In this document: in pieces, positions 1 to 53,875 of the stretch
Numbering within the stretch: the stretch's first letter is position 1
How the letters are laid out: each line of letters opens with the position of its first letter
Assembly (NCBI GenBank): GCA_964187785.1
Contig: OZ076409.1
Span: 79,486,001-79,550,000, forward strand
Length of the DNA: 64,000 nucleotides
Reading direction: 5' to 3'
Source of the DNA: Amphiscolops sp. MND2022
Taxonomy: Eukaryota
Position numbers and translations under genes: made by a program
The notes under the pieces: model-generated
Told to the model about the DNA's origin: nothing
Databases searched by the model: none
What the model saw: the letters and a program-made list of their open reading frames with translations, nothing else

Positions 1-194
1 AAATCTGGGAGGATTCTACAAGAATCACTGGACCTACTCAGAAACGGATGAATAACAATCACAAATGAGAGAGAGAGAGCCATCTTAACAACGAGCAGCA
101 GAAAAAGCAAATAGAAATATGCACGACACAACTGAAAAAACTCTTAAAGATAACGGAATAATAGCACTCTAGTTCCACTTGACAAAGCTCACAT
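1..194 (+). repeat. 3' part of probable 5' LTR
   Basis: 'aaatctg..ggacctactcagaaacggatgaata..cgagcagcagaa..gcacgaca..tagcactc..caaagctcacat' aligns with 8325-8510 and with every array unit. No clear TGG PBS follows. Confidence 0.65.
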
Positions 195-369
195 CCACTT
201 TAAAACCTCTCATCAATTTCGCTTTTATTGTTCAAAGTAACTAATTTTTCAATGATTGCTTTTCTCAGCTATTAAAGTAGAGAACTCAAGTGACCCGCAC
301 TGAACATCCCATAAACATGAGTGCAATCATGATAAAAGTGTCTACAAATTATACTATAAAATGAGCGTC

Positions 370-900
370 ACCAAGCCTTTCTCACAGAACTACAACGCTT
401 AGCCTTAGATGCGTACCCGAATATAAAAGCTCCAGCAGCTGCAGATGGTGACCCAGCAGTTGCAGCAGAAGACCGAGCTCAAGAACGTACTCGTCCGGTT
501 AGAGAACCTTTCATCAATGGAAAACCTCTCAAACTAGAACGATTCCCTCTCACACACCCAGAAGATACAACAAGAGAGGATCTCTGCGCTAAAGCTGCTA
601 GTCGTTTAATAGTAGCTCGTCTCTACCCAGAAGACGATGACAGAGCATTCGACGAACTTCGAGGTAGTTCCTCCAAAGTTTTATCCGGAATCGAGGAACT
701 CACTAAGGCCCTGACCAAAGTTCAACAAGAAACTTGTAAATTGACTGACGAACTCAAAAAGATCAGAAAAACCCTTACTCAACTCTTAACCAACTTGGCA
801 ATAATAATTGTCATAATATTAAAAACAACCAACAACAACAAAACGATAATGGAACAACTAAAACAACCGAAACAAAAATGGCTACAACTACAGTCGAAGT
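370..900 (+). pseudogene. gag relic
   Basis: Manual translation AFLTELQRLALDAYPN...VREPFINGKPLKL resembles the Gypsy capsid region. It is followed by an Asn/Gln-rich low-complexity stretch. Confidence 0.6.
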
Positions 901-1289
901 AAAAACTGCTACTTTGGATTCAATTGAAACTATAACCAACAACACTCACACAACCAACAACAAAACCGTAACAATCGACAGATTTCATGCGATCGCAATC
1001 GGAAAGGACAAAGCAAACAGTACCAAAATAGAGTTCAATCAGGACATGCACATTCGAATATTTACAACAAGTGTGTTCATACACCAGCAGCATGTTGATT
1101 TCGTCCAACATAAAGAGGAGCTGCCTCGCTCCCTCATCACCACGTCTCTACTGCACTTTATATAATCCAATGTCCTCACAGTATCAGATGCCGTCATCCC
1201 AACAAATGATGCCACCACAAATGATGCAACAACAGATGTATAACCAACAAAAGAACCAGAGCCAAGCGAACTACGTGAGCCACGTATAG

Positions 1290-1680
1290 TCCTCCTTCTA
1301 CTTTAGCTGCTATCAACGTATTATCTATTAACAAGCCTCTTACATAATTTTTTCCATTAACTTTAAACTTTTCATTTCCTATAAGAGCATTAATAGATAC
1401 TGAAGGCTTCACTAGTGCCATGCCTTCATATAACTTCCCTCTGTCATTTCTAACTATAATTCCCAAGAGAGCACCGTCAAAGTTGCTAATGGTGCTTCTT
1501 CACCGACCTTTGGCACTTTCAAAGCCATTCGTTTTGCCTATGAAACCTCTTGTGAAAACTTCATCATCCTAAAAACCATGAACCAAACGATACTTGGTTT
1601 GCCTTTCTTTGAAGAGAATGATATTCTGATTCAACCCAAATCACGCACCTTGAAATTACCGAACACTGCTTTACAGCTAA
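1290..1680 (+). pseudogene. Retropepsin (aspartic protease) relic
   Basis: IRALIDTEG at 1381 (degenerate DTG), KVANG flap, and ILGLPFF near 1590. Confidence 0.75.
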
Positions 1681-2129
1681 GAGAACGTATCCATTAAAAC
1701 GGATATATTAGTTCACTTCACTAGGAGTTTCAAATATCTTGCCGTACAACATTACCATTTGAAACAATTCCTAAAAAGCCCAACTAACTATACTCAAACC
1801 AAAACAAGCAGTTTTATTCACAACCTGGTAATTCAGGGCTTCAAATGAATTTTTTCTGAAAAAATAAACACGCTTGTTAAAGACTCGAATACCACAGTGT
1901 TCCCGAGTAAGGAAAATTGCTCGAAGGCAGAGAAACTTACTGGAATTCACAAAAATTTATGATGAAAAAGCAAAACCCAAATCAAATTAGAAAATAGACA
2001 CGATAAACTACAAATAAGATAGACAACAATACCTCCAACAGTATCCTTGGACGATTTCAGTCTCCAATGACACCCAGAAAAGTACAGTAAAAGATCTTCC
2101 ACCGTTTCACCTAATTTTTGCTCGTCAAC

Positions 2130-2610
2130 GACTTGACATCGGTGCAAACCATGATTTCAAGATAAAACTTACACTCGAATACAAGAAAACCATGTATACT
2201 CTGGTCCTCCGACCCTCATTCATTGCGTGACGAATTACTAGTAGAACATAGCACTATTGCAATACTGGGATATCATTACAACCCTCCCGTATTCCAAACA
2301 ATGCAGTCCCATTTTTGCCTTCGCAAGCCTTCACGTTTGTTAGTTGATCTCCGTCGACTCAACTATCTTATCAAACATGAGTATGACAATCATATTTTCC
2401 CCATCAACTTTTTGACTGATGTCAATGGTCAACTAGCTGGAAGAAAGGTTTTTCGCGTAGTAAAGCCTATCATGATCATGTGCTTCAGATAGCTGACCCG
2501 TTATCGGTGCAGTTTCTCTTTTTTACCTTTCGTTCACAAACGTTTGCTTACCTACGCCTTGCACAAGGCCTCAGTCGTTCAGTGGGGTCTTCAGTTCGTT
2601 TAATGGCGCA
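2130..2610 (+). pseudogene. Reverse transcriptase N-terminal relic
   Basis: RLLVDLRRLN and FAYLRLAQGL motifs; frameshifted and truncated before YxDD. Confidence 0.8.
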
Positions 2611-2619
2611 CAGTCGAAC

Positions 2620-4151
2620 AGTCGACAATTGGGAGTACCTCCCTGATCACTTGACACAGTAGCGTCGCACCCTGGCCACTGCTGGATGGTCCATGTCGAT
2701 AACGCACCCATCCATCGGAATCCCAACTGTGGCAGTACACCATAAAGTTTTTTCCAGGAGCCATGCAGTCGCCAAGATCTAAAAAACTTTTTGTTGCTCT
2801 CTTTTTCTATTCTCCTACTCTTGATATCTATATAAAGCAGTTTTCCATGTTTACCGTCCACTCTGCTGCTATCGCTGCCGTTGTTCGAGTGATTTTTTGA
2901 ATGAGAAAGTCATTCGGCGTACTCCCCCAGTTCGTGACGACAGACGTCTTTGAATGCAGCTGTCCGCATCCCGTCGCCGGTTGCTTCCCGCAATTCCTTG
3001 CCATTTGTTTGCTGCGGTTGAACTTTGCCTATCTGAAAACAACATCTTTTCAATGGATCTTTTCCTAACTCGTCTTCCAGAAAATCTCACCTGAAATCTT
3101 TTCGACGTCCAATTTAGTACCTGATTTTTGGCCCAGAAGCAAGTAATATACACTTGACCACCAGCATTGGCTGTTGACTTCTGCTAGTTTACCCACAGCT
3201 AGCTTTCTTGATGGAGCCGGCAGCACCCCAGCCCCTTCGCGTTGATGTTTTTCACTGCTCCCCCACTGACAGGGTAACCCCAGCCTGTCGCCTATCTCTC
3301 GCCTTTTCGCCGTTAAAACATGAACGTACCGCATGCTTCTAGACTGCCGCGCTCTTGAAGTAGCATGCCTAAAAGTTGCAAATGGACCTGTCTTATACAT
3401 TAAGCTGCAAGTCTTTGTATGTCTACGTTTCTTCGACCTTCAGTTCACATTATTAACAAATCCTCAAGCGTACTTACGCTCTGGCAACGCCCTTTATGCC
3501 GCCCAAGCTGATAGGAAACTCCATTCCCTCTATATTTAGTGCGCCCACATGTTTCCGCACACCTGCCAAGTTTTTGTCCGCTAATCCAACATTAACCCTG
3601 TTTAGCACTTCGCAGACTTGTTCAGCGGTTGGGACAATTTTTGCTTCGCCTTGTCGCCTTTGTACAACAGTTTCTTCCCCTCTAATTTTAAATTCAAACA
3701 GAACTTTTTGAAAGCATACACCTTCTCAGAAGTTTACAACACCCTTCTGTCAATCGCTCTCTCCTTCAAATGCTTCTCGCAGGCTTCTCTTGGAAAATGA
3801 TACATTTTGTTCAAATTTGAAATACCATTCACTAAACTTACTTAACGTACAACATAGCATGCTCTTTCTTTCTCTGCTTGCTGCGAATTCGAAAATACTT
3901 CTCGAATCGATTCCCTTTTTTGGAATTTCTGTGGTTTCGTTCATCTTTGTATCTAAACATATCTCTACACGTCCCGACTACTATTTATACATATACTACA
4001 TAATATCAATAATCTACTACTATCTATATCTTTTTTACAAACCCAATTTTACAACTTCTGAAACAGTTCATTCATCTGACTCTACCTTCGGGTTTTTCTC
4101 TTCTGTCGACTACATATACGGTTTCTCTTTTTATCCGATAGTAGTGTAACA
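2620..4151 (-). mobile_element. Inverted fragment of a second (gag/protease-like) retroelement nested in pol
   Basis: Host RT stops abruptly at ~2610. The minus strand is purine-rich with gag-like RRQGEAK, a knuckle-like remnant and FLDLG. A possible LTR start TGTTAC lies at 4151 on the minus strand. Confidence 0.4.
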
Positions 4152-4399
4152 TAAACATGCTAAAATAATAGTGAATGTGATGACTGTAACTACTGACTCC
4201 TACAACCACTATCCAGTTGCGTGGATCTTGATCGGCCTCTTTTGGCCAGAGAACACAGGCTGGATCGCGTTCTGGCTTGAAGGAGACCACCATTCGTTCT
4301 CCTCTTTAGACACGTAGGTGCCTTCATGACAACAATTGGATTCGTAGTAATAGAGTGCAATGTTTTGACACATCTTGAAGACGTTCTGACCAATTCGAA

Positions 4400-4500
4400 A
4401 AATAGAATTATACTGTACGAAAAGTTGGAACCCTCCTAACCCCATGCGTTCATCGCATTCGGCTTAGACCCATACCCCACAAAATCAAATGGATGACTTT
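4400..4500 (+). pseudogene. Integrase C-terminal relic
   Basis: NYTVRKVGTLLTPCVHRIRLRP resembles the segment after the GPY/F motif in Gypsy integrases. Confidence 0.6.
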
Positions 4501-5399
4501 CCCAGTGTTAATCATCAGGGATGATTCAATGTGTCCTTCTTAAAAGATATTGCTCGGAACCGTCTATGTTTGAGAATCTTTTTCCTAAACTTCTTTCGGA
4601 AACACCAATTTCACCTCACGTCGCAGTTTCGGGATCAATGAATGTCTTTTTTTGCTATATGCTTCGTCGCAACGCCACGAGAATAGTTGCACCTCCACCC
4701 CCTAATGCACTTTCTCGAAAAGATAATGTTCAGAATTCAGAATTTGTCGGATTCTTGTCGGATTCAGATAACACTGCAACTTCGGAGACTCGCACTGACA
4801 TTGAACCGGAACCTCTTTCAATGGTTGATGTCCCCTTCCAAATGATTGACTTTAGCAGTCCCCCTTGTTCACAACCTTTGTTTGATTCCTCAAACGTATT
4901 AATTGTAGCCTCAGCCCAAACTCTATCCACACATACTTAACCAGTGTTGCAAAACCAGAAGTCTTTTCTGATTATTTTTTTTTGCACTTTTGTGAAATGC
5001 CTTACACAGAGAGCCTCTGAAAAACTCGAAACAAACGTTTAGATACCCTTCTTCATTAGTAATTGTTTGGATATGATGTTCAGACTGATGGTAACTTCAA
5101 GTAGCAGCTTTGAATGAGATCCAACAATAGTGTTGATTGATCAAACAACAAAAGAAATTGGAAACAACAAATCTATGCTATAGCATAAACACCAAGTGGT
5201 TCCCTTAGGCTAACACTTTCCGAATTTGATACAAAGATTGACTCGACACCCCAAATATAGTAGGAATCCCTGTGATATTTAGTCCTCTCCTGTTTTGGTA
5301 CCTAAGAAGACACAAAATTTTTGATTAGATTTGAATTTCTATTTTTCTTGATCAACTTATAAATATATTGTTCACAGTCTACAGAAGCACCATTTTGAA

Positions 5400-7420
5400 C
5401 ATTGGAATGTTCAATTTTCTTTTCCTTCTACTTTTTGGTAGCTTCTCAGACTGGCATAACGACATATGATGCGCCTGATGGTGACCTTCGCTAGGGCATA
5501 ATCTTTCACGAGAACAAGAATATTCTCTTGGCAGAAAAATATGCCATTATTCAGTTCCTCTTGTCTTTACCGATGTTCCATGTTTCGATCAAATGGAAAG
5601 TTGAACAGATTGCTTTCACTCTGGATCAAATGTGGTCCATGCCCACAAACTTTTGTTACTTGAATGCTACGAAGACGTCCATGGCTGAATTTAACGTCCA
5701 CTAGATGGTCCAATATAGTAATAATAAGAACTATAAGTCAAAAAAATTGCTGTCACCGAACAAGATCTTGATCGTCTTCACCATGAGACTGCCTCTCGTT
5801 TGTCTCCGCCTCAAACTACTTCTCGCTCCCGCCGTGAAGTATTTTTGGCTGCTGTAGCCGTTAACGCCATTGGTCGTTTTGGATCTGGCATAGCCTTTGG
5901 CTGACACGTGCGGACTCACAGGCATCTTTATCTTTGCTAGCTGCTAAACTGAGAAAAATGCTGTTGCCATTTCTCGAAAGTTTGAAATCAACTCAGAACT
6001 CCTTGATGCTCTTCATCATCTGAAATCAGAAACAAATGATAAACTTTACATTGTTGGTAACGAACTTCACTCATTACGTGAAATACAACAAAGAGTGGCT
6101 GATATTCAAAATGCTAATTGGCGTGTTATCACTGTGAAACTAGACTCCTATCGTTGTACTGTAAATATTGTAGACCAAGTTTTTTCCTCAACAACAGATC
6201 ACTTTCAATTTCGATGCTCTTTCGTCTCTTCTTTCACTTTTCTATGCGAACTTGAAGTCAAATCGTGCTGAGCTTTTTTGTACCATATAAATTTGTTTAT
6301 TAGCATCCCGGATCTCCTCCAACAGTATGTGATGATATATCTTCTGCTTGGTGATTCCCTTCACATCGTCTTAGAGAAGTGGCACGCATTCAAAGTTACT
6401 GAGCGTATCCACCGTTGCGATCCCCTTCGATCGTGTCGTCTCTTATAATGAAGCCCAACTTTTACAGGCTCCCGCAAGGATTCCTATCAACACTCTCAAC
6501 ACTCAATTCTCTTGGCTTCCAGCACCAGAGTCATGACAATCTGTGGAGCAATCCCGCTGCTGATGCCCCAACCAGGCAATGCCTCTGCCAAAATTTGCGA
6601 GCCTGAACTCCCTACCTACCAGTTATGGAAAAAACAGATACTACGCTCGTCTCTGAGGCGCCCTCGTAGAACTGTATTGGTTCGGACTAAGACAGTATGC
6701 CACCAAGGCCTTGCTACGGAAGGTTTGTGGTCTTCCTGACTCATCACTTTGTTTCTCTGCAATCTTGTCCAGGCATTGACGGTTTGTCACTTGAAACCTT
6801 ATCCACGCCCGCTGAGGGAACATGCTGTAAGTCTTTACTTTGATATTTAGTGAAAACTATCCGCCTCTTGACACCTTTGAACTTCGTGAGTCGGAAAATA
6901 ACTCCTCGTCTCCACTCGCTTCAGCCACACACCCTGGATGTCGTGTCTGCCTTTTCACCCTTAATTGTGGAGAGATGCTGACCACTTCTCATCTTACCAT
7001 TCGTTCTGACCTGCAAACATGTAATGTGGTTCCTCCCACATAACTGAAGGTAGATTTTGCTAGGCATCTAGAGAATTTTCTCAGCGCCCTTTCGACTCTG
7101 GATGAATTACCTTATCACACCACCAATCAGCTGCACTTTTGCATTCCCTCCAAGCTATGAAAGACAAAATCCATATGCTTCCCTTCAACCGTGATTCCAC
7201 GGATGATACTCTACGGGATCCTGCGAAGCCTATTGCCCTTGAAGACCCAAATCAAAACTGCATTTGGCCAATCTTTCGCTTCTTCTTCCACTAATAAAAC
7301 TATTCCTTATGGGCAGTGCGAGGTTTGTTATTTCAATGGCTCTTAACCTCGCTGTGACATATTTTCCATCAATTTCATAGGCTTCGCAAATTTTTGCCAT
7401 TTACGCAAAAATCAGATGCT
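5400..7420 (+). pseudogene. env-like class I fusion glycoprotein relic
   Basis: Signal-like MFNFLFLLLF (~5408); furin site RSRR (5824-5835) then hydrophobic EVFLAAVAVNAIGRFGSGIAFG; heptad region NAVAISRKFEINSELLDALHHLKSETNDKLYIVGNELHSLREIQQRVADIQ; Cys-rich downstream. Disrupted by stops. Confidence 0.75.
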
Positions 7421-8149
7421 CTCCATGACAAAGTACGACTGCGCCTGAATGGCAGTCGACTATGAGGCTAGTCCATATCTCCATGCTGAATCCTTTCCCT
7501 GGCATAATCGAGGTGTTCTCCTCTCTAGCACCATCGTTGAGAGCCTTCAAGAGCATGTTTCACTAGTTTATTGCCTATCATTTTTGTTTTTTTTTCGGAA
7601 GAATATTTAATTTAGCCAATTTTCTTCACGCTTTGTGATTCATGCGCATCTTTCATAGCTATGACTCATTGTCCCCTGAAATGCTATTTGTTGGGCATTT
7701 TTTTTACTTAACCTGACCCGCTTACGTTTCACCTCTCCATGCTCTATTTTCAGCGAACACCTTCCCTTTTGCTCCAAACATGCTTCTTGGCTTGTTTTTT
7801 GATTTCAGCCCTTATTTCTAACTCTTCGTCCTCACAAAATCGCTTTTCGATATCTAATTTGTCCACCTTTTCTATCTTTGTACTGGGATTCTTGTATTTT
7901 GATATTAGATCACTTCATGAATACACTTTTGCGCATTTTCGTTTGAGTATAGTCGCATATTTACTCTCTCTGCTTTTATTAACGTTAACCCCTTTTGCTT
8001 TCCTGTTATTATTGAGTTTTGCTCAACAGGATGTACACTTTGCTCACCCCTTTAAACACCCATCTTTCGTGGGGAACGCTATAGTTTCATGCTCTTTTTA
8101 CCCTTCTGTATTCTTGTTAATAATCTTTAAACCGAGGCTCTACTTTTGT

Positions 8150-11100
8150 TGATATGGTATATGTATTTATTTTTCCTGGACGGTTTCATACTTAGTTGCA
8201 TTTGGTTCATCATCTCTGTTTTTTTTCATGTGCTGCTGTCTGGCTATCTTCTATCTCAATATCTGATATTACGTGCCTCTGGCATTTCTCCTTTTTCCGG
8301 GTAGATTCATGGTTCTCATCATGAAATCTGAAAGGAATCTACATGATTCATTGGACCTAATCAGAAACGGATGAATAGCGAATCACAACAACGAACCAAT
8401 GAAAGAAAACCAACTCAACAGCGAGCAGCAGAATAAGCAGATAACTTTAAGCACGACAGGAACAGAAAAGTAGCACTCCACAAAGCACACACACTCAACA
8501 AAGCTCACATTTTTTGTTTTTTTTTATCAAAATTTTTTTTAAGTCTCCAAAGGGTCCCCCTTTCATTTTTTGATACTTTGCAACAGAACGAATGTTAAAA
8601 AATCTCACAGGGTCCCCGTTTTAGAGGTTTGGGATTGTTAGATGTTTCAAAATGAATGTTTTTTGTCTTAAAAATAGTTTTTTTTCAGGCCCAGCAAGCT
8701 ACATCAGCATTTTGAATTTTGTTTTTTTTTTCAACGATCGATGTTTTTTAATTGCGACCTCTCTGTAATTTTTTTTCATCTAAGCCCCACATTTTTTACT
8801 GAAAACGAAACGTTTTGCAAGCATAAAGGACTCCTCAGGGCTTTCGGCACTATGCGACTTACCGGAGACTTTCACCGAAAAAAACTTTTCGGAAATTTTC
8901 GGATATAGGTTTTTTCTCATTTTTTGTTTTTTGAAAGGTTTTTGGTTGAGAAAGATGGATTTTCGCTGTTCCGATTTAGGGAAAAAGGTAGTCGAGTCTA
9001 ATGCGTTCCCTCGGGGTAGTTTTTGGCACTGTAAACAGGATAAAATTTTAACAATGTGTTTTTACCTGTGATTCTCCGTCTGATATTTAGTGCTTATTTG
9101 GTTTTCTCTTCAAAAGTTTGCAACTTTCTTTGCTTAGCATCTGTGTTCAAAAATTTTCCAACATGAATTTCAGTTTAAAGTTAAATAGTATGAAAATGAC
9201 GTTAGCGGAGTTGATTTTCGGCAATGTTTCATTTTCAAAACTTTCAGGCAATAGCAAGATGTTCTCGTTTCCAACCGGATTCAGGAATGTTTTTAGTCGG
9301 TGTTTTTAGTCGGCGCTTCAAGAAGTGAAACGCGACTATTATAATAACTATTTTTTTCAATCCACACGAACTGACCAAAAGAGGTCTACGAAAGTTTTAC
9401 GAAATTTAATGGTGTCAAATTTAATTGTTTGGCCTAGCGAACTCAACCAAAAAAGTTTTTCTTGTTTTTCGGCGTAACATAGAGTACTGGGCGAGACTAA
9501 AGGTCCCCCTTTCAGTTTTTTGGCGTTGTCTGAATTGATATGGTATATGTACTTTGTTTTTCTGGACGACCGTATGGTTTCATCCTTAGTTGCATTTGGT
9601 TCATCATCTCTGTTTATTTCATGTGCTGCTGTCTGGCTATCTTCTCTCTCAATATCTGCTATTACGTGCCTTTGGCATTTCTCCTTTTTCCGGGTAGATT
9701 CATGGTTCTCATCATGAAATCTGAAAGGAATCTACATCATTCATTGGACCTAATCAGAAACGGATAAATAGCGAATCACAACAACGAAACAATGAAAGAA
9801 AGCCAACTCGACAGGGAGCAGCAGAATAAGCAGCTAACTTTAAGCACGACAGGAACAGAAAAGTAGCACTCCACAAAGCACACACACTTAACAAAGCTCA
9901 CATTTTTTGTTTTCTTCATCGAAAATTTTTTTAAAGTCTCCAAAGGGTCCCCCTTTCATTTTTTGATACTTTGCAACAGAATGAATGTTAAAAAATCTCA
10001 CAGGGTCCCGTTTTAGAGTTTTGGAATTGTTAGATGTTTCGAAATGAATGTTTTTCGTCTTAAAAATAGTTTTTTTTCAGGCCCAGCAAGCTACATCAGC
10101 ATTTTGAATTTTGTTTTTTTTTCGAAGATCGATGTTTTTTAATTGCGACCTACCTCTCTGTAATTTTTTTTCATCTAAGCCGCACATTTTTTACTGAAAA
10201 CGAAACGTTTTGCGAGCATAAAGGACTCCCCAGGGCTTTCGGCACTATGCGATTTACTGGAGACTTTCACCGAAAAAACTTTCCGGAAATTTTCGGATAT
10301 AAGTTGTTTCTCATTTTTTGTTTTTTGAAAGGTTTTTGGTTGAGAAAGATGGATTTTCGCTGTTCCGAATTAGGGAAAAAGGTAGTCGAGTCTAATGCGT
10401 TCCCTCGGGGTAGTTTTTGGCACTGTAAACAGGATAAAATTTTAACAATGTGTTTTTACCTGTGATTCTCCGTCTGATATTTAGTGCTTATTTGGTTTTC
10501 TCTTCAAAAGTTTGCAACTTTCTTTGCTTAGCATCTGTGTTCAAAAATTTTCCAACATGAATTTCAGTTTAAAGTTAAATAGTATGAAAATGACGTTAGC
10601 GGAGTTGATTTTCGGCAATGTTTCATTTTCAAAACTTTCAGGCAATAGCAAGATGTTCTCGTTTCCAACCGGATTCAGGAATGTTTTTAGTCGGTGTTTT
10701 TAGTCGGCGCTTCAAGAAGTGAAACGCGACTATTATAATAACTATTTTTTTCAATCCACACGAACTGACCAAAAGAGGTCTACGAAAGTTTTACGAAATT
10801 TTATGGTGTCAAATTTAACTGTTTGGCCTAGCGAACTCAACCAAAAAAGTTTTTCCTGTTTTTCGGCGAAACATAGAGTACTGGGCGAGACTAAAGGTCC
10901 CCCTTTCAGTTTTTTGGCGTTGCCTTTATTGATATGGTAAATGTATTTACTTTTTCTGGACGACCGTATGGTTTCATCCTTAGTTGCATTTGGTTCATCA
11001 TCTCTGTTTATTTCATGTGCTGCTGTCTGGCTATCTTCTCTCTCAATATCTGATATTACGTGCCTTTGGCATTTCTCCTTTTTCGGGTAGATTCATGGTT

Positions 11101-14100
11101 CTCATCATGAAATCTGAAAGGAATCTACATGATTCATTGGACCTAATCAGAAACGGATAAATAGCGAATCACAACAACGAAACAATGAAAGAAAGCCAAC
11201 TCGACAGGGAGCAGCAGAATAAGCAGATAACTTTACGCACGACAGGAACAGAAAAGTAGCACTCCACAAAGCACACACACGTAACGAAGCTCACATTTTT
11301 TGTTTTTTTTTTATCGAAAATTTTTTTAAAGTCTCCAAAGGGCCCCCCTTTCATTTTTTGATACTTTGCAACAGAATGAATGTTAAAAAACCCCCCAGGG
11401 TCCACGTTTTAGAGGTTTGGGGTTGTTAGATGTTTCAAAATGAATGTTTTTTGTCTTAAAAATAATTTTTTTCAGGCCCATCAAGCTACATCAGCATTTT
11501 GAATTTTGTTTTTTTCAAAGATCGATGTTTTTTAATTGCGACCTCTTTGTAATTTTTTTTCATCTAAGCCCCACATTTTTTACTGAAAACGAAACGTTTT
11601 GCGAGCATAAAGGACTCCTCAGGGCTTTCGGAACTATGCGACTTACCGGAGACTTTCACCGAAAAAACTTTTCGGAAATTTTCGGATATAAGTTTTTTTC
11701 TCGTTTTTGGTTTTTTGAAAAGTTTTTGGTTGAGAAAGATAGATTTTCGCTGTTCCGAATTGGGGAAAAGGGTAGTCGAGTCTAATGCGTTCCCTTGGGG
11801 TAGTTTTTGGCACTGTAAACAGGTTAAAATTTTTACAATGTGGGTTTACCTGTGGTTCTCCGTCTGATATTTAGTGCTTATTTGGTTTTCTCTTCAAAAG
11901 TTCTCAACTTTCTTTGCTTAGCATCTGTGTTCAAAAGTTTTCCAACATGAATTTCAGTTTAAAGTTGAATAGTTTGAAAATGACTTTAGCGGAGTTGATT
12001 TTTGGCAATATTTCATTTTCAAAACTTTCAGGCAATAGCAAGATGTTCTCGTTTCCAACCGGTTTCAGGAATGGTTTTAGTTGGTGTTTTTAGTAGGCGC
12101 TTCAAGAAGAGAAACGCGACTATTATAATAACTATTTTTTTAATCCACACGAACTGACCAAAAGAGTTCTACGAAAGTTTTACGAAAGTTTATGGTGTCG
12201 AGTTGAACTGTTTGGCCTAGCGAACTCAATCAAAAAGGTTTTTCCTGTTTTTCGGCGTAACATATAGTACTGGGCGAGACTAAAGGTCCCCCTTTCAGTT
12301 TTTTGACGTTGCCTTTATTGATATGGTATATGTATTTATTTTTTCTGGGCGACCGTATGGTTTCATCCTTAGTTGCATTTGGTTCATCATCTCTGTTTAT
12401 TTCATGAGCTGCTGTCTGGCTATCTTCTCTCTCAATATCTGATATTACGTGCCTTTCGCATTTCTCCTTTTTCCGGGTAGATTCATGGTTCTCATCATGA
12501 AATCTGAAAGGAATCTACATGATTCAATGGACCTAATCAGAAACGGATAAATAGCGAATCACAACAACGAAACAATGAAAGAAAGCTAACTCGACAGGGA
12601 GCAGCAGAATAAGCAGATAACTTCACGCACGACAGGAACAGAAAAGTAGCACTCCACAAAGCACACACATGTAACAAAGCTCACATTTTTTGTTTTCTTT
12701 ATCGAAAACTTTTTTAGAGTCTCCAAAGGGCCCCCTTTCATTTTTTGATACTTTGCAACAGAATGAATGTTAAAAAATCTCACAGGGTCCACGTTTTAGA
12801 GGTTTGGGGTTGTTAGATGTTTCAAAATGAATGTTTTTCGTCTTATAATAGTTTTTTTCAGGTCCAGCAAGCTACATCAGCATTTTGAATTTTGTTTTTT
12901 TTTTCAAAGATCGATGTTTTCTAATTGCGACCTCTTTGTAATTTTTTTCATCTAAGCCCCACATTTTTTACTGAAAACGAAACGTTTTGCGAGCATAAAG
13001 GACTCCTCAGGGCTTTCGGCACTATGCGACCTACCGGAGACTTTCACCGAAAAATCATTTCGGAAACTTTCGGATATAAGTTTTTTCTCATTTTTGGTTT
13101 TTGAAAAATTTTTGGTTGAGAAAGATGGATTTTCGCTGTTCCGAATTGGGGAAAAGGGTAGTCGAGTCTAATGCGTTCCCTTGGGGTAGTTTTTGGCACT
13201 GTAAACAGGTTAAAATTTTAACAATGTGGGTTTACCTGTGATTCTCCGTCTGATATTTAGTGCTTATTTGGTTTTCTCTTCAAAAGTTCGCAACTTTCTT
13301 TGCTTAGCATCTGTGTTCAAAAGTTTTCCAACATGAATTTCAGTTTAAAGTTAAATAGTTTGAAAATGACTTTAGCGGAGTTGATTTTCGGCAATATTTC
13401 ATTTTCAAAACTTTCAGGTAATAGCAAGATGTTCTCGTTTCCAACCGGTTTCAGGAATGGTTTTAGTTGGTGTTTTTAGTCGGCGCTTCAAGAAGTGAAA
13501 CGCGACTAATATAAAAACTATTTTTTTTCCACACGAACTGACCAAAAGAGTTCTACGAAAGTTTTACGAAAGTTTATGGTGTCGAGTTGAACTGTTTGGC
13601 CTAGCGAACTCAATCAAAAAAGTTTTTCCTGTTTTTCGGCGTAACATATAGTACTGGGCGAGACTAAAGGTCCCCCTTTCAGTTTTTTGGCGTTGCCTTT
13701 ATTGATATGGTATATGTATTTATTTTTTTCTGGACGACCGTATGGTTTCATCCTTAGTTGCATTTGGTTCATTATCTCTGTTTATTTCATGAGCTGCTGT
13801 CTGGCTATCTTCTCTCTCAATATCTGATATTACGTGCCTTTGGCATTTCTCGTTTTTCCGGGTAGATTCATGGTTCTCATGAAAGCACACACACTTAACA
13901 AAGCTCACATTTTTTGTTTTCTTTATCGAAAATTTTTTTAAAGTCTCCAAAGGGTCCCCCTTTCATTTTTTGATACTTTGCAACAGAATGAATGGTAAAA
14001 ATTCTCACAGGGTCCCCGTTCTAGAGGTTTGGGATTGTTAGATGTTTCAAAATGAATGTTTTTCGTCTTAAAAATAGGTTTTTTCAAGCCCAGCAATCTA

Positions 14101-17100
14101 CATCCGCGTTTTGAATTTTGTTTTTTTTCTCCAAAGATCGATGTTTTTTCATTGCGACCTCTTCCTTATTTTTTTTCATCTGAGCCCCACATTTTTACTG
14201 AAAACGAAACGTTTTGCGAGCTTAAAGGACTCCTCAGGGCTTTCGGCACTATGCGACCTACCGGAGACTTTCACCGAAAAATCATTTCGGAAACTTTCGG
14301 ATATAAGTTTTTTCTCATTTTTGGTTTTTGAAAAGTTTTTGGTTGAGAAAGATGGATTTTCGCTGTTCCGAATTGGGGAAAATGGTATTCCAGTCTAGTG
14401 CGTTCCCTTGGGGTAGTTTTTGGCACTGTAAATAGGTTAAAAATTTAACAATGTGTTTTTACTTTTGATTCGCCGTCTGATATTTAGTGCTTATTTAGTT
14501 TTCTCTTCAAAAGTTTGCAACTTTCTTTGCTTAGAATCTGTGTTCAAAAGTTTTCCAACATGAATTTCAGTTTCAAGTTAAATAGTATAAAAATGACTTT
14601 AGCGGAGTTGATTTTCGAGAATGCTTCATTTTCAAAACTTTCAGGCAATAGCAAGATGCTCTCCTTTCCAACCGGTTTCAGGAATAGTTTTAGTCGGTGT
14701 TTTTAGTCGGCGCTTCAAGAAGTGAAACGCGACTATTAAAATAACTATTTCTTTTCAACCCACACGAATTGACCAAAAGAGTTCTACAAAAGTTTTACGA
14801 AATTTTATTGTGTCAAATTGAACTGTTCGGCCTAGCGAACTCAACCAAAAAAGTTTTTTCCTATTTTTCGGCGTAACATAGAGTACTGGGCGAGACTAAA
14901 GGTCCCCCTTTCAGCTTTTTGGCGTTGCCTTTATTGATATGGTATATGTCTTTATTTTTTCTGGACGACCGTCTGGTTTCATCCTTAGTTGCATTTGGTT
15001 CATCATCTCTGTTTATTTCATGTGCTGCTGTCTGGCTATCTTCTCTCTCAAAATCTGATATTACGTGCTTATGGCATTTCTCCTTTTTCCGGGTAGATTC
15101 ATGGTTCTCATCATGAAATCTGAAAGGAATCTACATCATTCATTGGACCTAATCAGAAACGAATAAATAGCGAATCACAACAACGAAACAATGAAAGAAA
15201 GCCAACTCGACAGGGAGCAGCAGAATAAGCAGATAACTTTACGCACGACAGGAACAGAAACGTAGCACTCCACAAAGCACACACACTTAACAAAGCTCAC
15301 ATTTTTTGTTTTCTTTATCGAAAGTTTTTTTAAAGTCTCCAAAGGGTCCCCCTTTCGTTTTTTGATACTTTGCAACAGAATGAATGGTAAAAAATCTCAC
15401 AGGGTCCCCGTTTTAGAGGTTTGGGATTGTTAGATGTTTCAAAATGAATGTTTTTCGTCTTAAAAATAGGTTTTTTCAAGCCCAGCAAGCTACATCCGCA
15501 TTTTGAATTTTGTTTTTTTTCTCCAAAGATCGATGTTTTTTCATTGCGACCTCTTTCTTATTTTTTTTTCATCCGAGCCCACATTTTCTACTAAAAACGA
15601 AACGTTTTGCGAGCTCAAAGGACTCCTCAGGGCTTTCGGCACTATGCGACTTACCGGAGACTTTTGTCGAAAAATCATTTCGGAAATATTTGGATATAGA
15701 TTTTTTCTCGTTTTTTGTTTTTTGAAAAGTTTTTGGTTGAGAAAGATGGATTCTCGCTGTTCCGAATTGTGGAAAATGGTATTCGAGTATAGTGCGTTCC
15801 TTGGGGCAGTTTTTGGCACTGTAAGCAGGTTAAAAATTTAACAATGTGTTTTTACTTTTGATTCGCCGTCTGATATTTAGTGCTTATTTGGTTTTCTCTT
15901 CAAAAGTTTGCAACTTTCTTTGCTTAGCATCTGTGTTCAAAAGTTTTCCAACATGAATTTCAGTTTAAAGTTAAATAGTATAAAAATGACTTTACCGGAG
16001 TTGATTTTCGGCAATGTTTCATTTTCAAAACTTTCAGGCAATAGCAAGATGCTCTCCTTTCCAACTGGTTTCAGGAATGTTTTTAGTCGGTGTTTTTAGT
16101 CGGCGCTTTAAGAAGTGAAACGCGACTATTATAATAACTGTTTTTTTTCACTCAACACGAACTGACCAAAAGAGTTCTACGGAAGTTTTACGAAATTTTA
16201 TGGTATCAAAGTGAACTGTTTGGCCTAGCGAACTCAACCAAAAAAGTTTTTCCTGTTTTTCGGCGTAACGTAGAGTACTGGGCGAGACTAAAGGTCCCCC
16301 TTTCAGCTTTTTGGCGTTGCCTTTATTGATATGGTATATGTCTTTACTTTTTCTGGACGACCGTCTGGTTTCATCCTTAGTTGCATTTGGTTCATCATCT
16401 CTGTTTATTTCATGTGCTGCTGTCTGGCTATCTTCTCTCTCAATATCTGATATTACGTGCCTTTGGCATTTCTCCTTTTTCCGGGTAGATTCATGGTTCT
16501 CATCGTGAAATCTGAAAGGAATCTACATGATTCATTGGACCTAATCAGAAACGGATAAATAGCGAATCACAACAACGAAACAATGAAAGAAAGCCAACTC
16601 GACAGGGAGCAGCAGAATAAGCAGATAACTTTACGCACGACAGGAACAGAAACGTAGCACTCCACAAAGCACACACACTTAACAAAGCTCACATTTTTTG
16701 TTTTCTTTATCGAAAGTTTTTTTAAAGTCTCCAAAGGGTCCCCCTTTCGTTTTTTGATACTTTGCAACAGAATGAATGGTAAAAAATCTCACAGGGTCCC
16801 CGTTTTAGAGGTTTGGGATTGTTAGATGTTTCAAAATGAATGTTTTTCGTCTTAAAAATAGGTTTTTTCAAGCCCAGCAAGCTACATCCGCATTTTGAAT
16901 TTTGTTTTTTTTCTCCAAAGATCGATGTTTTTTCATTGCGACCTCTTTCTTATTTTTTTTTCATCCGAGCCCACATTTTCTACTAAAAACGAAACGTTTT
17001 GCGAGCTCAAAGGACTCCTCAGGGCTTTCGGCACTATGCGACTTACCGGAGACTTTTGTCGAAAAATCATTTCGGAAATATTTGGATATAGATTTTTTCT

Positions 17101-19107
17101 CGTTTTTTGTTTTTTGAAAAGTTTTTGGTTGAGAAAGATGGATTCTCGCTGTTCCGAATTGTGGAAAATGGTATTCGAGTATAGTGCGTTCCTTGGGGCA
17201 GTTTTTGGCACTGTAAGCAGGTTAAAAATTTAACAATGTGTTTTTACTTTTGATTCGCCGTCTGATATTTAGTGCTTATTTGGTTTTCTCTTCAAAAGTT
17301 CGCAACTTTCTTTGCTTAGCATCTGTGTTCAAAAGTTTTCCAACATGAATTTCAGTTTAAAGTTAAATAGTATAAAAATGACTTTACCGGAGTTGATTTT
17401 CGGCAATGTTTCATTTTCAAAACTTTCAGGCAATAGCAAGATGCTCTCCTTTCCAACTGGTTTCAGGAATGTTTTTAGTCGGTGTTTTTAGTCGGCGCTT
17501 TAAGAAGTGAAACGCGACTATTATAATAACTGTTTTTTTTTCACTCAACACGAACTGACCAAAAGAGTTCTACGGAAGTTTTACGAAATTTTATGGTATC
17601 AAAGTGAACTGTTTGGCCTAGCGAACTCAACCAAAAAAGTTTTTCCTGTTTTTCGGCGTAACGTAGAGTACTGGGCGAGACTAAAAGGTCCCCCCTTTCA
17701 GTTTTTTGGCGTTGCCTTTATTGATATGATATTTGTATTTATTTTTCCTGGACGACCGTCTGGTTTCATCCTTAGTTGCATTTGGTTCATCCCCTCTGTT
17801 CAATTCTTGTGCTGCTGTATGGCGATCTTCTCTCTCAATATCTGATGTTACATGCCTCTGGCATTCTTTCCTTATTCCGGGTAGTTTCTTGGTTCTCATC
17901 GTGAAATCTGAAAGGAACCTACATAATTAATTGGACCTACTCAGAAACGGTTAAACAGCGAATCACAACAACGAACCAATGAAAGAAAGCCAACTCAACA
18001 GCGAGCAGCAGAATAAGCAGATAACTTTACGCACGACAGGAACAGAAAAGTAGCACTCCACAAAGCACACACACACTTAACAAAGCTCACAATTTTTGTT
18101 TTCTTTCTCGAAGATTTTCTTAAAGTCTCCAAAGGGTCCCCCTTTCACTTTTTGATACTTTGCAACAAAACGAATGTTAAAAAATCTCACAGGGTCCCCG
18201 TTTTAGAGGATTGGGATTGTTAAATGTTTCAAAATGAATGTTTTTCGTCTTAAAAATAGGTTTTTTCAGGCCCAGCAAGCTACATACGCATTTTGAATTT
18301 TGTTTTTTTTTTCAAAGATTGATGTTTTTTCATTACGACAATTTTCTTATTTTTTTCAGCTAAGTCCCACATTTTTTACTGAAAACGAAACGTTTTGCGA
18401 GCATAAAGGACTCCTCGGGGTTTTCGGCACTATGCGACTTACCGGAGACTTTCATCGAAAAAACTTTCCGGAAATTTTCGGATATAGGATTTTTCTCAGT
18501 TTTTGTTTTTTGAAATGTTTTCGGTTGAGAAAGATGGATTTTTGCTGTTCCGAATTGGGGAAAATGCTATTCGAGTCTAATGCGTTCCCTTGGGGTAGTT
18601 TTTGGCACTGTAAACAGGATAAAATTTTAACAATGTGTTTTTACCTTCGATTATCCGTCTGATATTTAGTGCTTATTTGGTATTCTCTTCAAAAGTTCGC
18701 AACTTTCTTTGCTTAGCATCTGTGTACCAAAGTTTTCTAACATGAATTTCAGTTTAAAGTTAAATAGTATGTAAATGACTTTAGCGGAGTTGATTTTCGG
18801 CAATGTTTCATTTTCAAAACTTTCAGGCAATAGCAAGATGTTCTCGTTTCCAACCGGTTTCAGGAAAGTTTTTAGTCGGTGTTTTTAGTCGACGCTTCAA
18901 GAAGTGAAACGCGACTATTATAAGAACTATTTTTTTCAATCCACACGAACTGACCAAAAGAGTTCTACGAAAGTTTTACGAAATTTTATGGTGTCAAAAT
19001 GAACTGTTTGGCCTAGCGAAATCAACAAAAAAAGTTTTTCCTGTTTTTCAACGTAACATAGATAACTGGGCGAGACTAAGAGGTTCCCCCTTTCAGTTTT
19101 TGGTGTT
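8150..19107. repeat. Tandem macrosatellite, 8 units of ~1.39 kb (LTR plus HINE-like DNA)
   Basis: Marker 'gatatgg/gatatga' at 8151, 9537, 10931, 12320, 13704, 14936, 16328, 17723. Unit 5 is ~160 bp shorter. The ORF track repeats at the same period. Confidence 0.95.
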
Positions 19108-44889: not shown

Positions 44890-47800
44890 TCATTTCATCT
44901 TCCATAGGGGGTCCAACGAACTGAATGGATCGTTGGGATTAGATTCTTGACCTATCTTGAAAGTAGCGTCATCAAAATTGTGCCTTTTAGGTCCTTTGGG
45001 CGACCCGGAGCGAGAGCCAACACTGAAGTTATCAGCGGACATTAAAGCTCTGAGATCTCTGACTCCATTTGCTGCGTTACCAGACTTATCTTCGCTGTCA
45101 TTGTTAGCTTGCATTGAATTACTGTTTGTTTCTTCACTAAAGGTTGTCTTGGTTGATATGGGCTGGAGCGATGGCAGCCCGTATGGAGAAGGACTGTTTA
45201 TCACTTGGTAGGAGCAAGTCTGGTTTGCTTTGGTTGTGGAGAGGAATTGTTGAATGTAGTGAAGATAGCAGATATAGAGAAAAAACATTTGGTTTGGTGA
45301 CGTCACTATGGCCTGGTGGAAATGTCGGATGGCGTTTATTTCAGTTGAGACGTCAGTCATTCCAAACCCATGGTCAATGCACTGCATGCATTTAAGAAGT
45401 AGCATCAAAATTCCGCTTTGAGTAATACCATCCCTTCAACATAACATGCCATTTAATATCAATCGACTACCAACGATCTTTGCTGAACTTTATTACAATA
45501 GAATAAACAAAAATTTGGGTGCAACTGAAAGTACTCATACGTGAAATTCAAACGTTGATGATTGTTCTTCGCGAAAAGAATATTTGAGAACACACTGTTG
45601 AAAAAATTTTATTCTGGTGAACTCGATCTTGAATTTTTCATTTATTTTTTCCATGGCAAAAACCCATATGGGTACAGAAAACTTGCACGTTGTAAAATTC
45701 AGATTCTAGCAGATTTAAAGAAATACCAAAAACGGAATACCTGCACAGCAACAGAACAGGCTGGTTGTAGTTGGATTGCAGACTGTAGAAGTGTCTCACA
45801 GTTCGTACGAAAGACAAAAACGGAGCATGTTTGGGGAATAATTCAGACGCTGACGAATTTTCGCAGCAGTCCACTGATGGCCATTCCAGGAATTGTAAAT
45901 GTGTCACAGACCTAAGCACGAAAATAGCACTTTTATAGGTTAGACTTTTAGCACCACGAAAATGATTCGCGGGATCTTTGGAGGCCTAAGCGCTTTGGTG
46001 TTATATTCCATATTTGGCGATGTTGTAAGAAATAAATGCAAATTCAAAGGTTCGACCTATCGACTCTTAGCTTATGTTTACCGAATTAATCAAGAGCAGC
46101 AGCATTATTGAAGAGAAAAACCAAGAAGAAAATACCTGTTTGTGTTTTGGGCAGGGGAGAACAAGTTAACTGTTCTTTGAAGCCAGTATTGTGAGATACT
46201 CGTATTCTGAAGACGCAAGAATAGATCCTTGCCAATGCTAACATTCACTCCCTGCATCGTCGGCATGTAAGGACACGGCTAAAACAGACAGGCAAACTTT
46301 ACATACTTACTTCTGCTCAGTCACCTTAATAATTCCATATCTACATATTTATCAGTTTCAGCTTTGGACAGTTTCAAAATCTTCATATACTTTGAAATAG
46401 AAAAAATACAGCATAATCAAACACTTGATCATACCTGCTGGACAAGAAAGGGAATATATACAACATCAGAGTTCATTTGTAGAAACTAGTTCTAACAAGA
46501 CGGGAACGTCTCAAGTCGGCGCTATATCTAAGGCTCAAAAAGCGCAAAACATTTTTTTTTCGGAAAAAAACTTGAAATTTTCGAAAAAAAAAATTCTTTC
46601 GGAAAATGTCGCACAAAGCCGAAAAATGTAAAAGGGGGACCCTTTTTGATTTATAAACACGCATTCTGTAGCAAAATAACAAAAAACTCAAAGGGGGACC
46701 CTTTGGGGACATAAAAAAAAATTCGAAAAAAAGTCTCACAGCGCCGAAAAAAAATCGAAAGGGGGGGGGGTTACAACTTTAGTCCCGTCCGGGCTTGTAT
46801 GTAACGTTTAAAAAGTAAATGAATGCGCTCCCCGTTTGCCTTTAGCGGTCCAGTAGTTTAGTACTTATTTAGTAGTTGAACGTTAATTTTAACGTTCGTC
46901 GCTTCGAGTCTGTCTTAAATAAAACAAGACGGGAACGTCCCAAGTCGGCGCCATATCTTAGGCTCAAAAATATTCAAGGAACAACTATTGTAAAAGTTTG
47001 GAAAAAAAATTTTTCAAAAAAATTATTTTTGAAATTTTTTTTCGAAAAAAAAGTATTTTTAAGTCGCAAAATGCCGAAAAAAATCCAAAGGGGGGACCCT
47101 TTGGGCACGTCCGGTTGTGTATGTTTCCTTGAAAAAGTAAAAACTGAAAGGGTTGGAGTAAAGTTTGCCTTCTGCGCAGAATTGCAGAATTGTAAGAAAA
47201 GTGGACCACTCAGAGTGAGATTGTCAACTGAAAAAAACAAAAAAAAAAAAAAAAAAACTACTCACTGTAAGAGTCGGGCTTTTTTCCTTAAGGGAAAAGG
47301 CGCCGACTAAAAAACGAGTGACTGTAATAGTCGGGCTCTTTTCTTAAGAAAAGCGCCGACTAAAAATACTTCTAAAGTTTAAATAAGACTCTTTAAAATT
47401 TCACTCTTTAAATTTTCACTAGCCTGATTCCTGCCACTAAAGGAAACGATGAGAGATATGTCTGACTCACTGACCATCTCCCAAAACAACTTCATACTCT
47501 CATCGCTATCCGAGCTCTCGCTGCCAAGTAAAAGAAACCGCGGCACCAAACCAAACTCCATGTCAACATCGACCACCACCATCTTGGAGCCCCCGATCTG
47601 GTCCGGATAAACCGAACGCACGACAGCGTTACCAACGAAGCATTCGCTAGTCCTCACAGCACTATTCAAACCAGGGACGTTTTCGGCCAACTTTAAATCT
47701 GATTTTTCCTTGCAAGATGAGCAATTTTTTACAAATTTGTTCTCAAGATCTTCCCATTCTCTTTCCAGAATGGTGGGTCCGTTCAAAGTTCGTTTATGTA

Positions 47801-50800
47801 TATTGGCTAGATGTTTTTCTAATTTTTCAACATCAGAAACTAGTTTCGAAATGAACTGATCAGCATTGGGTAGAACAACAGAACTTTTTCTCAAAGGACT
47901 GTTCCGCACAACAGGAGAACGCTTGATGATCGAGTTGATAACTAGAGATACTTCATTTGACGGCGGCAACCTTGTTTCCTGGACACTAACTGACTTATTA
48001 TCATCAGCTGGTACAGAGTTGCTTGACATCACGACGGGCATATGTTGCTCAATTATTGCTGGACTTGGTGATTGAGATTCCGACCTTCTGGCTCCGTTGA
48101 TTTCCCCACCTTCGACTTTAACAGAGGGTTCCACAACTCCACCTTCCGAGTCAGTGCTTTTGCTCGTATTGGAGCTAACCACAGTAGCATTTGGTTGAAG
48201 AACAGGCGTTGGGTCAACTTTCACTTGGTTTATCGACTGGTTAGGCTGCAGAGATGAGTTAAACGCCTTCGAATTGTGTGTAGGCGACGAGTCGACAGTT
48301 GGATTGTGTTTAACCTCGTGATTTTTCAGCACCGGAGATTCACAATGCCCAAGACTCTGATCAACTGAATTCGACCGTTTCTCGGAATTATGACTGGCGA
48401 CACCATGTCCGTAGTACCAATTCGCTTGGGCGTTTGGATGCTGCATGCTAATATTCGAAGTACTTGCATTTTGCACTACATTGTTGGCTAAATTGTTACC
48501 ATTTATGGACTGACTGTCAGTCGCAACTACTGACTGTTGATAACTGATGGGAACATTGCTGTGACTAGTTGGTGTCTGCTGGTTATTCGTGATATTCGAA
48601 TTCATTTGAACACCACTGTAATTTTGACTGACATTCTGAGTCATTTGAGCACCCTGTTGTTGCTGGGAATTAGGAAAAACTAACGGCTTCTGTTGAGATT
48701 GCTGCTTCATCAATGCAGACAGAACTTTAGGATCCATAGGTTTCTTCGGGTCATACGTAGCAACATATTGACTAACTTCCTTACTGGAATCATCCATGGT
48801 TGTTGGCACAGATTGAACAGAAGCACGCGTTGGCTCACTCTGACTTGAAGATAACGAGTTGGGAATTGAATGCATACCCTGGTAGTTACCATACATTGGC
48901 GCAGCGGTTTGAACAGAAACGGGAGCATTTGAATGTAAATTTTGTGGAACTGGTGAGTAATTTTGATTTGCAGTATAATCTTGGGGCAAGCTCGTTGGTT
49001 GGTTACGAAAGGTAGTAGCAGCAACATTGGTTTCTGGAAGCTGTACACTTTCGCTAACGTTTTGGGTGTTGGGTTGCTTCTCACTGATCGCACGATTTCT
49101 CAACTGATCAAGCTGCTGTTGGTAGTTCTGAGTCAAAGACGCCACGTTCCATACCTGAATATACAAGGTAATCATCAGTTTGACTAAAATTTGGGACTTC
49201 ATGCGTAAAGAGCAACAACATAAATTAACAGTTGAGGTTCCACAAGAATGACAAACATCAGCAGATTTCTAAATCATTCTTCAGTATTTTTAACCCTTTC
49301 ATGTTATCTATTCAATTACAGAGCGTTATTGCCTTTCGTTGACACATTTTATTTTCCGTCCCCATAATTATGTCAGACAAAAAATTACCAACTTGACTGC
49401 ATTTTTGCTCATGTTTTCATTTCTACCCGCATGACGAAGGCTCTTTCACAGAATTCAACTACCGCAAAATAAGTTCGTAGCATACGTAATTCTGGAGATA
49501 ATTGAACTGAAGAGAAAAGTTTATTTGACTGGAAAGAAGAATAACATCTATGTTCAAGAGCAAATATGCCAATCTGGACGGGAAAATAGTTATCAAAACG
49601 AGTCGAGTCCCCGCCAGAAGAAAACCATTTAGAGATAAAGAAAATGTACTAGCCTAATACTTAAGATTCGTCAAACAAAACTCTTAATTATAACGATGGG
49701 AAAATATGAACTTATTTCGAACATAAGTTTCAAATAATTCGAAATAAAGCGAAAACAGATGCTTATTAGCAGCAGTGAAAACGTTAGTCAAAACCTTAAA
49801 GTAAAATCGACTGAGTTCCTTCAAGTCGCAGGGCCGCAAACTGGCTTCTGTCAGTCAGTTGAAAGTTTTCTTTAAAAAACTACTTGAAGACTTCCGCTGG
49901 ATAGATGTTCGTTAGTATGTCCCCTACTATACACAGTTGCGGTGAAACCTTTTTGTGTCCCCTGGTACAGTACGTGTTTTGAAAAAGCATAACGAAATCA
50001 ATTTTTTGTAATTGACCATCTTGCTGTAGTTGTCAAAGAAGTTTTTATGTTGTCTTCAATGAAGAGTCGAAAACAGTTCGAATTTTGTTACGTTGCAAAA
50101 TCTCTTGCAAAGAATAAAGTTGCTCGAATAATTGGCCCGCTAGCAGATTCGATGTTTCCCAAGTTTGATTTAGTTGCTGGTCCAAACTTCAGAAACCGTA
50201 ACTTTGCAAATGAAGTTATAAAACATCAATAAACACTTCAGCGTGTACACATGCCGTCTTCTAAAAAGAACACAAAATTTGAGTTTTCGCGATATATTTG
50301 CGATATAATCAAGGAATCTTATGTATCTATCTACAAAAACACCTAGATATTTGCATGCACTTTCATGGATCAAAGTTTTTTCCAATAGAAAACGGAGTTT
50401 ACTAGTGTGCCCTTTCAAAGGAGACTGATTCACACTTGTCTTCACTACTACTCAGCTTGTTCGCACAAAACTATTCAGATATTCGACTGATTTCTAGTTG
50501 AATTAAGCAACAGCCTTCACGATCGGCTTTGATGATTGTAGTATATTCAACGAAGACGGCTAATTTGCAATCACTATCTCCTAAGTTGAAGTCGACATGT
50601 AGCGCAAAAACAGAAAAGGTCTTAGTATCTTTATACAGAAAGGGACATCAGTATTCTTTATTGCAACGAAAAAGTCCCAAAATGCCAAAAAAAAATCCAA
50701 TTTATGATCATTATATGCAATTTTTGCAGCTTTCAAATGTTTTCATCGGTAGGAATATCCACAGAGTTCAATGACGAAATAGTAGGCCAACAAGAAGTAC

Positions 50801-53800: not shown

Positions 53801-53875
53801 GATTTTTACGACCGTAATAAAAATTTTACGACCGTTTTGTTTATTTATATAGTAGTAAAAATTATTGATTTCAAT

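Follow-up and report, generated by a model that had tools for sequence, protein, structure and literature searches.

A decayed F-type class I fusion protein gene in a probable Ty3/gypsy retroelement

The window, that is the whole 64-kb stretch of DNA that was analysed, very probably holds a dead Ty3/gypsy LTR retrotransposon of the order (gag)-pol-env, in which env codes for a class I fusion protein of the F type. Operationally, such an element is what Chary and Hayashi call an 'ancient errantivirus', and its nearest described counterparts appear to be Tor3b and Tor4b of tunicates. Judged from its sequence, env is a genuine gene that has kept its overall outline but died long ago, since it matches intact proteins collinearly and over nearly their full length and is interrupted by many frameshifts and stops. 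The combination of env with a gypsy element is real and has already been published across most animal phyla; new are at most the env subfamily and possibly the host group. By itself the locus is a minor, dead copy of a published class, and its value is that of a pointer to an unnamed, apparently recently amplified env subfamily that standard domain annotation has overlooked.

The decayed env gene and its intact relatives

A profile of 18 natural env relatives was aligned to the window with tolerance for frameshifts. Positions 3-673 of its 723 are collinear with 5426-7414 at 406 bits, compared with 18.3 +/- 1.6 bits (maximum 23.2) for 60 shuffled sequences and 22 bits for the reverse strand. 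Because the match spans this interval with such a score, the limits of 5400..7420 proposed in an earlier note on this DNA are nearly exact. The best relative, P0003 (725 aa), aligns through residues 11-725 with 293 identities in 689 positions (43%) and carries the match weakly on to 7586, the last 75 residues not being significant alone. Against P0003 the gene is broken by 14 frameshifts and 8 stops and against the profile by 13 and 8, counts that shift somewhat with the alignment penalties. The absence of the gene from the open-reading-frame track had been ascribed to stops; the eight stops contribute to it, and the frame is lost mainly through the 13-14 frameshifts.

The family was reached by an exhaustive phmmer search of 1.84 billion representatives with one env frame (5438-6799), in which stops were read as X. 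At E<=0.001 it yielded 95 matching proteins; 29 of these reach 1e-10, and the best has 1.3e-64. Word-index protein searches with the env frames gave no match, and Pfam searches with whole frames and frame pieces of the element gave nothing useful.

Four parts of the protein had been named beforehand, and each was recovered at the place listed in Table 1: a signal-like peptide (a hydrophobic start at about 5400-5470, assessed by hydropathy only), the motif RSRR, a fusion-peptide-like run and a heptad region. The frame piece with RSRR matches the env family with a probability of 96.7 in hhalign. Heptad-type helical sequence is visible directly at 5948-6163 and maps on the helices of the P0003 model. 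Between residues 74 and 534 P0003 has 12 cysteines, and at ten of these positions the window has kept a Cys codon.

Table 1. Features of the element and of the rest of the 64-kb window, with the basis of each assignment.
Feature	Positions	Strand	Basis
Candidate 5' LTR, truncated at the left end of the window	1..290	+	1-138 = 8324-8469 at 76%; alignment recognisable to about 215, end at about 290 set by eye
Possible decayed primer-binding site, weak	288..299	+	By eye, 8/12 bases as in the tRNA-Trp PBS given in supplement 1 of PMC13524379
180-codon open frame in gag position, candidate gag	360..902	+	Open reading frame
Remnant of Ty3/gypsy pol with the aspartic protease and the N-terminal RT half; stops before YxDD	1351..2601	+	P0302 residues 2-510, 249/407 identities (61%), 450 bits vs shuffle maximum 20
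1.8-kb stretch replacing about 775 residues of pol	2602..4405	.	No pol match
Integrase C-terminal tail, past the catalytic core	4406..4712	+	P0302 residues 1286-1390, 49/100 identities, 98 bits vs shuffle maximum 25
Full extent of the env pseudogene (class I fusion protein of the F type)	5399..7586	+	phmmer, profile and P0003 alignments
env: signal-peptide-like start	5399..5470	+	Hydrophobic run; weak alignment with the P0004 N-terminus, 16 bits vs shuffle maximum 13.5
env: RSRR furin-type cleavage site	5824..5835	+	Aligned with RSKR of P0003
env: fusion-peptide-like hydrophobic segment, Ala/Gly-rich	5836..5914	+	P0003 132-158
env: HR1 heptad-repeat helices and central helix	5948..6319	+	P0003 model helices 168-192, 201-239, 245-295
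env: cysteine-rich beta domains of the ectodomain	6462..7049	+	P0003 345-543
env: transmembrane segment	7303..7356	+	P0003 628-646, hydropathy 2.29; residues 630-725, 30 bits vs shuffle maximum 18
env: cytoplasmic tail	7361..7586	+	20 bits vs shuffle maximum 21; not significant alone
Candidate 3' LTR part, also start of the first tandem-array unit	8145..8510	+	8324-8469 vs 1-138, 76%
Thiamine pyrophosphokinase coding segment	36117-36686	-	Pfam TPK domains
NOP56 gene, intronless-looking, 473 aa	42461-43879	-	Pfam Nop, NOP5NT
Two open frames (629 and 377 codons) of low complexity, rich in Gln/Asn/Ser	47382-49268, 52695-53825	-	
Satellite, 176-bp units, about 10 copies	54382-56179		96% matches
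1427-codon open frame	56678-60958	-	N-terminal C2H2 zinc fingers, weak endonuclease VII-like match

The intact relatives of env are unnamed proteins of 710-780 aa, with no name on any of the first ten that were examined, and are diverse, with 28-56% identity. Among 13 long relatives, an R-x-x-R motif at about residues 100-145, a hydropathy peak directly behind this position and a C-terminal hydrophobic segment each occur in 12, and all 13 have 12-14 cysteines before residue 620; in P0003 eight Cys lie from 418 to 534. The cluster of P0003 has 17 members and that of P0018 has 19, spread over many different long contigs, and the long members that were compared (eight and five, respectively) are 95.6-99.3% identical to their representative. 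These near-identical intact copies therefore suggest that env-bearing elements were recently amplified somewhere in the protein collection, the host being probably, if not provably, the same or a related one. Since the frames are kept open in recently multiplied copies, selection for the env protein during transposition appears to have acted. Searches of viral, metagenome and prokaryote contigs yielded no env-bearing loci. A short protein of 44 aa, P0024, is 88% identical to HR1 of the window (5978-6110) and lies on a contig as long as that of the window's NOP56; it probably marks another decayed env copy close by, on this contig.

The predicted fold of the env protein

The Pfam family Baculo_F (PF12259) is matched by two of the 63 aligned env relatives, at best with 1e-6 and in P0072 above the curated cut-off; one of the two also matches CoV_S2 weakly. 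The remaining 61 have no match to Baculo_F, and P0003 is without any Pfam match. In the Atlas, the clusters nearest to P0003 are Baculo_F/Fusion_gly at 0.95, with a recognition value of 1701 that is under the trust level of the tool. A profile search of the PDB placed the 'fusion protein' entries 9w4c and 9w4d and F0 entries at the top, at E values of only 0.015-0.17.

The AlphaFold2 model of P0003 (63 sequences, monomer) has a pLDDT of 80.7 and a pTM of 0.66. It contains a low-confidence fusion-peptide region followed by long helices, together with beta-rich domains and a transmembrane helix. Foldseek with this model gave 208 matches in the PDB at E<=0.001, and all rows listed are F proteins of paramyxo- or pneumoviruses; measured against solved F structures, the TM-scores are low, with TMq of 0.17-0.30 by query length. 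In BFVD the best matches are an abalone herpesvirus protein, glycoproteins of chu-like and lispi-like viruses and baculovirus F, at 11-15% identity, and four baculovirus F proteins are among the top 15. Both kinds of F protein that the earlier note had put forward for a Foldseek comparison, those of paramyxoviruses and of baculoviruses, were matched by the model, and the class I architecture that it had likened to paramyxovirus F and errantivirus env is supported by the paramyxo-/pneumovirus and baculovirus F matches.

In VIA-align, the cores of coronavirus S2 came first, with Z up to 9.2 over residues 34-366, and the post-fusion F of NDV reached a Z of 8.3, with 292 residues over 15-530 and an rmsd of 4.2. 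As modelled, P0003 belongs among the class I fusogens with an F/S2-type fold, and F is its best whole-domain match. Because the TM-scores to F are low and coronavirus S2 is level with F or just above it in VIA-align, the predicted fold speaks more surely for 'class I of the F/S2 type' than for 'F' in particular.

The top structure match in BFVD is an uncharacterised abalone herpesvirus protein of 801 aa (A0A145VUZ2; E 1e-19, 13% identity). By this model comparison, a mollusc herpesvirus possibly carries a fusogen similar to F, which may have been exchanged with retroelements.

The element around env

The closest full-length pol relative tested, P0302, has the order protease, RT, RNase H, integrase zinc finger and core, and its best PDB match is Ty3 Gag-Pol (150 bits; the next entry, a foamy RT, reaches 87). 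In a Pfam scan, both of the two full-length closest pol relatives examined show the order PR-RT-RH-IN with a single RNase H of the gypsy type, and neither a second RNase H family nor a Pao peptidase family is listed for them. The pol pieces of the window, which belong to Ty3/gypsy and lie upstream of env on the same strand, uphold the assignment of the locus to a gypsy element that had been made before.

The protease and RT segment of pol (1351-2601) is interrupted by 11 frameshifts and 5 stops. About 775 pol residues are missing from the window copy: residues 511-1285 of P0302, which include the integrase core as well as YVDD and RNase H, have no match at 2602-4405 on either strand, and a 28-sequence pol profile, run against both strands of the whole 64 kb, detected neither the RT active site and RNase H nor the zinc finger and core of the integrase. 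The env gene had been described as a third gene, lying after integrase. The C-terminal tail of the integrase does precede it; since residues 511-1285 are absent, env comes after this tail and not after an integrase domain. Homology, gene order and strand are seen in one copy, in which the integrase tail (+) and env, starting at about 5400 (+), are 0.7 kb apart. The density of breaks is similar in the two genes, with 16 in 1.25 kb of pol vs 22 in 2.1 kb of env, and is therefore consistent with decay as one unit. Intact env relatives and intact pol relatives were found as separate sequences.

An RT pattern scan of metagenome contigs gave 36 matches, in which nine loci are RT relatives of 1952-2617; the pattern had no match in viral contigs. 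The alignment of the nine RT relatives retrieved 321 long pol proteins, the matches listed being 120 of these 321. A dUTPase domain between protease and RT is present in related gypsy pol proteins, above the Pfam cut-off in P0158 and weakly in P0157, P0293 and P0252. Two candidate RT signals were rejected: a PDB sequence search with the RT frames gave Rab27 matches only, which are spurious, and the motif YLPD at about 2640 lies beyond the end of pol homology at 2601.

The open frame in gag position (360-902) matches no Pfam or NCBIfam family above cut-off, its single-sequence model (pTM 0.31) gave no Foldseek match at E<=0.001, and no loci with this ORF or with P0179 were retrieved from the contig collections. 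The stretch at 2602-4405 has no match in Pfam, NCBIfam, PDB or Atlas and no terminal inverted repeats. Three origins of this stretch were considered and set aside, namely the element's own RNase H and integrase in inverted orientation (no pol match on either strand), an antisense LINE piece and a GIN/Ginger-like integrase, the latter two being readings by eye that no search supports. It is purine-rich on the minus strand and, by eye, holds antisense integrase-like pieces (a zinc finger and a PQTNG-like motif), without search support.

Candidate LTR repeats are placed on both sides of the genes, one cut by the edge of the window and the other within a tandem array. The array extends from 8145 to 18900 and consists of eight units of about 1.39 kb, each opening with an LTR-like segment and continuing with host repeat DNA; the LTR-like segments of the units are 88-93% alike. 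Upstream of 8145 the sequence is peculiar to the first unit and differs from the other units. The array therefore looks like the part of a 3' LTR that was amplified with its flank.

Role and origin of env, and comparison with known elements

In Drosophila, gypsy spreads to the germ line, and this spread, together with the general biology of class I fusion proteins, is the basis of the mechanism considered for intact members. The env protein would have a signal peptide, be glycosylated and form trimers. A furin-type protease would then cut it at R-x-x-R, and the C-terminal transmembrane helix would anchor it in the envelope of Gag particles. Upon a trigger, the exposed fusion peptide would insert in the membrane of a neighbouring cell; subsequently, HR1 and the stem would collapse into a helical bundle and the core with RNA, RT and integrase would be delivered. 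The most plausible route would lead from somatic or stem cells to the germ line, as in Drosophila gypsy. By analogy, a function of env in entry is rather likely for the intact members, and the locus may fairly be read, as it was in the earlier note, as the relic of a potentially infectious invertebrate retrovirus lineage. The window copy does none of this, with more than 20 breaks in env and a pol gene without catalytic centres.

The env may also belong to this same element and serve another purpose than entry, such as direct cell-cell fusion, and 'infectious' would then be the wrong word. The mechanism is called obscure for most such elements in the accessible Discussion of PMC13524379, and the Env of the Tor elements is presented in the accessible text of PMC4402516 as a glycosylated, furin-processed membrane protein whose transfer in particles is only proposed. 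On the other hand, all the parts of a class I fusion protein are conserved across relatives that are 28-43% identical, and the open frames of the recently multiplied copies point to selection for the protein. A role other than entry is regarded as unlikely, if still to be reckoned with, and entry is the preferred reading.

Another explanation is that env is foreign to the gypsy element and came from another env-bearing element, or from an endogenised RNA or DNA virus glycoprotein, by nested insertion or recombination. The locus is indeed rearranged, with a 1.8-kb foreign stretch in pol; the best BFVD matches include the abalone herpesvirus protein and the chu- and lispi-like virus glycoproteins, and no contig is common to the env and pol cluster members listed, which is a weak point at 15 or fewer members a cluster. 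Against such an origin, the viral proteins match with 11-15% identity vs 43% for the multi-copy intact relatives, whose near-identical copies (17 and 19 in two clusters, spread over many long contigs) are to be expected of a retroelement rather than of a single viral insertion. The window env also lies on the same strand as pol, in the canonical place after the integrase tail, with similar decay of pol and env and flanking LTR-like repeats, and its foreign origin is improbable.

A lokiretrovirus or Odin-type element (sister to retroviruses), or a BEL/Pao or copia element with an F-like env, is a very remote alternative: lokiretroviruses too have an F-like Env with an RXKR site (PMC7947760, accessible text) and the RT and integrase of foamy viruses are the next-best PDB matches after Ty3, but the foamy RT match, at 87 bits, falls below the 150 bits of Ty3 Gag-Pol, two of two pol relatives have one gypsy-type RNase H, the order PR-RT-RH-IN and no Pao peptidase, and lokiretroviruses are found in vertebrates only according to the accessible part of PMC9040795. 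The dual RNase H described for lokiretroviruses (PMC7947760) and Odin elements (PMC9040795) in these accessible parts was not seen in the closest full-length pol relatives, the region being absent from the window.

The Ty3/gypsy reading brings the locus close to the elements surveyed by Chary and Hayashi (eLife 2026; PMC13524379). As far as the accessible text goes, the survey comprises 1512 intact env-carrying Ty3/gypsy elements with env of the F type and the gB type, from hosts that range from insects to cnidarians, ctenophores and tunicates, and its Discussion leaves infectivity outside Drosophila open. The F-type elements described there have in common with the window a Ty3/gypsy pol followed by env, a signal peptide, a furin site, a fusion peptide, long helices, a beta-rich head and a TM anchor. 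With the relatives of the window env they share a predicted fold like that of RSV and paramyxovirus F and multi-copy, near-identical intact members. The survey elements and the env subfamily of the window are set side by side here by description and not by sequence. The window copy lacks the intact ORFs and the full RT and integrase by which intactness is defined in the accessible text of the survey, and is a dead member. The bridge formed by RNase H plus a mini-domain, a feature in which 'ancient' and 'insect' errantiviruses are set apart, is missing from the window pol. Xenacoelomorpha is absent from the survey's list of sampled phyla, and acoel terms are absent from the text and readable supplements of PMC13524379. 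In the literature, no report of env-carrying acoel retroelements was found among the matches listed.

According to the accessible text, the Env of Tor3b and Tor4b of Oikopleura (Henriet et al. 2015; PMC4402516) contains the motif N-[L/V]-G and, ahead of the TM, seven cysteines. The env family resembles this Env, as described there, in a predicted furin processing, in N-[L/V]-G near an aromatic residue and in a set of cysteines upstream of the TM; on the other hand, the F-X-G tripeptide of Tor is inconsistent in the env family. In the family alignment A1, N-[L/V]-G is present in 10 of the 13 rows that cover the site, and it is eroded in the window copy. A Tor-like kinship of the env family is thereby offered as a lead, drawn from these sequence motifs.

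The Env of Drosophila errantiviruses and the F of baculoviruses share with the family the class I F-type architecture, including the match of 2/63 relatives to PF12259. Baculovirus F differs in being 11-15% identical, whereas the env relatives are longer (710-780 aa) and have a cytoplasmic tail of 70-130 aa. The F of paramyxo- and pneumoviruses and the Env of lokiretroviruses, the latter as described in the accessible text of PMC7947760, have the same fold and order of motifs, with identities of 8-15% and low TM-scores.

It is possible, though somewhat less likely than not, that these sequences represent an F-type env gypsy lineage, mostly invisible to Pfam, related to Tor3b/4b, diverse and recently multiplying, in an animal group outside the survey, possibly acoels (Xenacoelomorpha). 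The pol peptides and host repeats presumably resemble sequences of acoels of the Symsagittifera/Convolutriloba type. If the lineage is confirmed there, germ cells that arise from body-wide stem cells would allow a direct test of env for spread from soma to germ line outside insects, and an early-branching bilaterian point would be added to the claim of a pre-Cambrian linkage of env and gypsy. A host phylum outside the survey would widen the range of env-carrying gypsy elements and give a new host in which the role of env can be asked.

The remaining features of the window are listed in Table 1. Its NOP56 is nearer to the human than to the yeast protein (538 vs 412 bits), as would suit a host of animal kind. 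The frame at 56678-60958 is taken by us to resemble Polinton/Maverick-associated proteins, and the Gln/Asn/Ser-rich frames are probably exons of a host gene.
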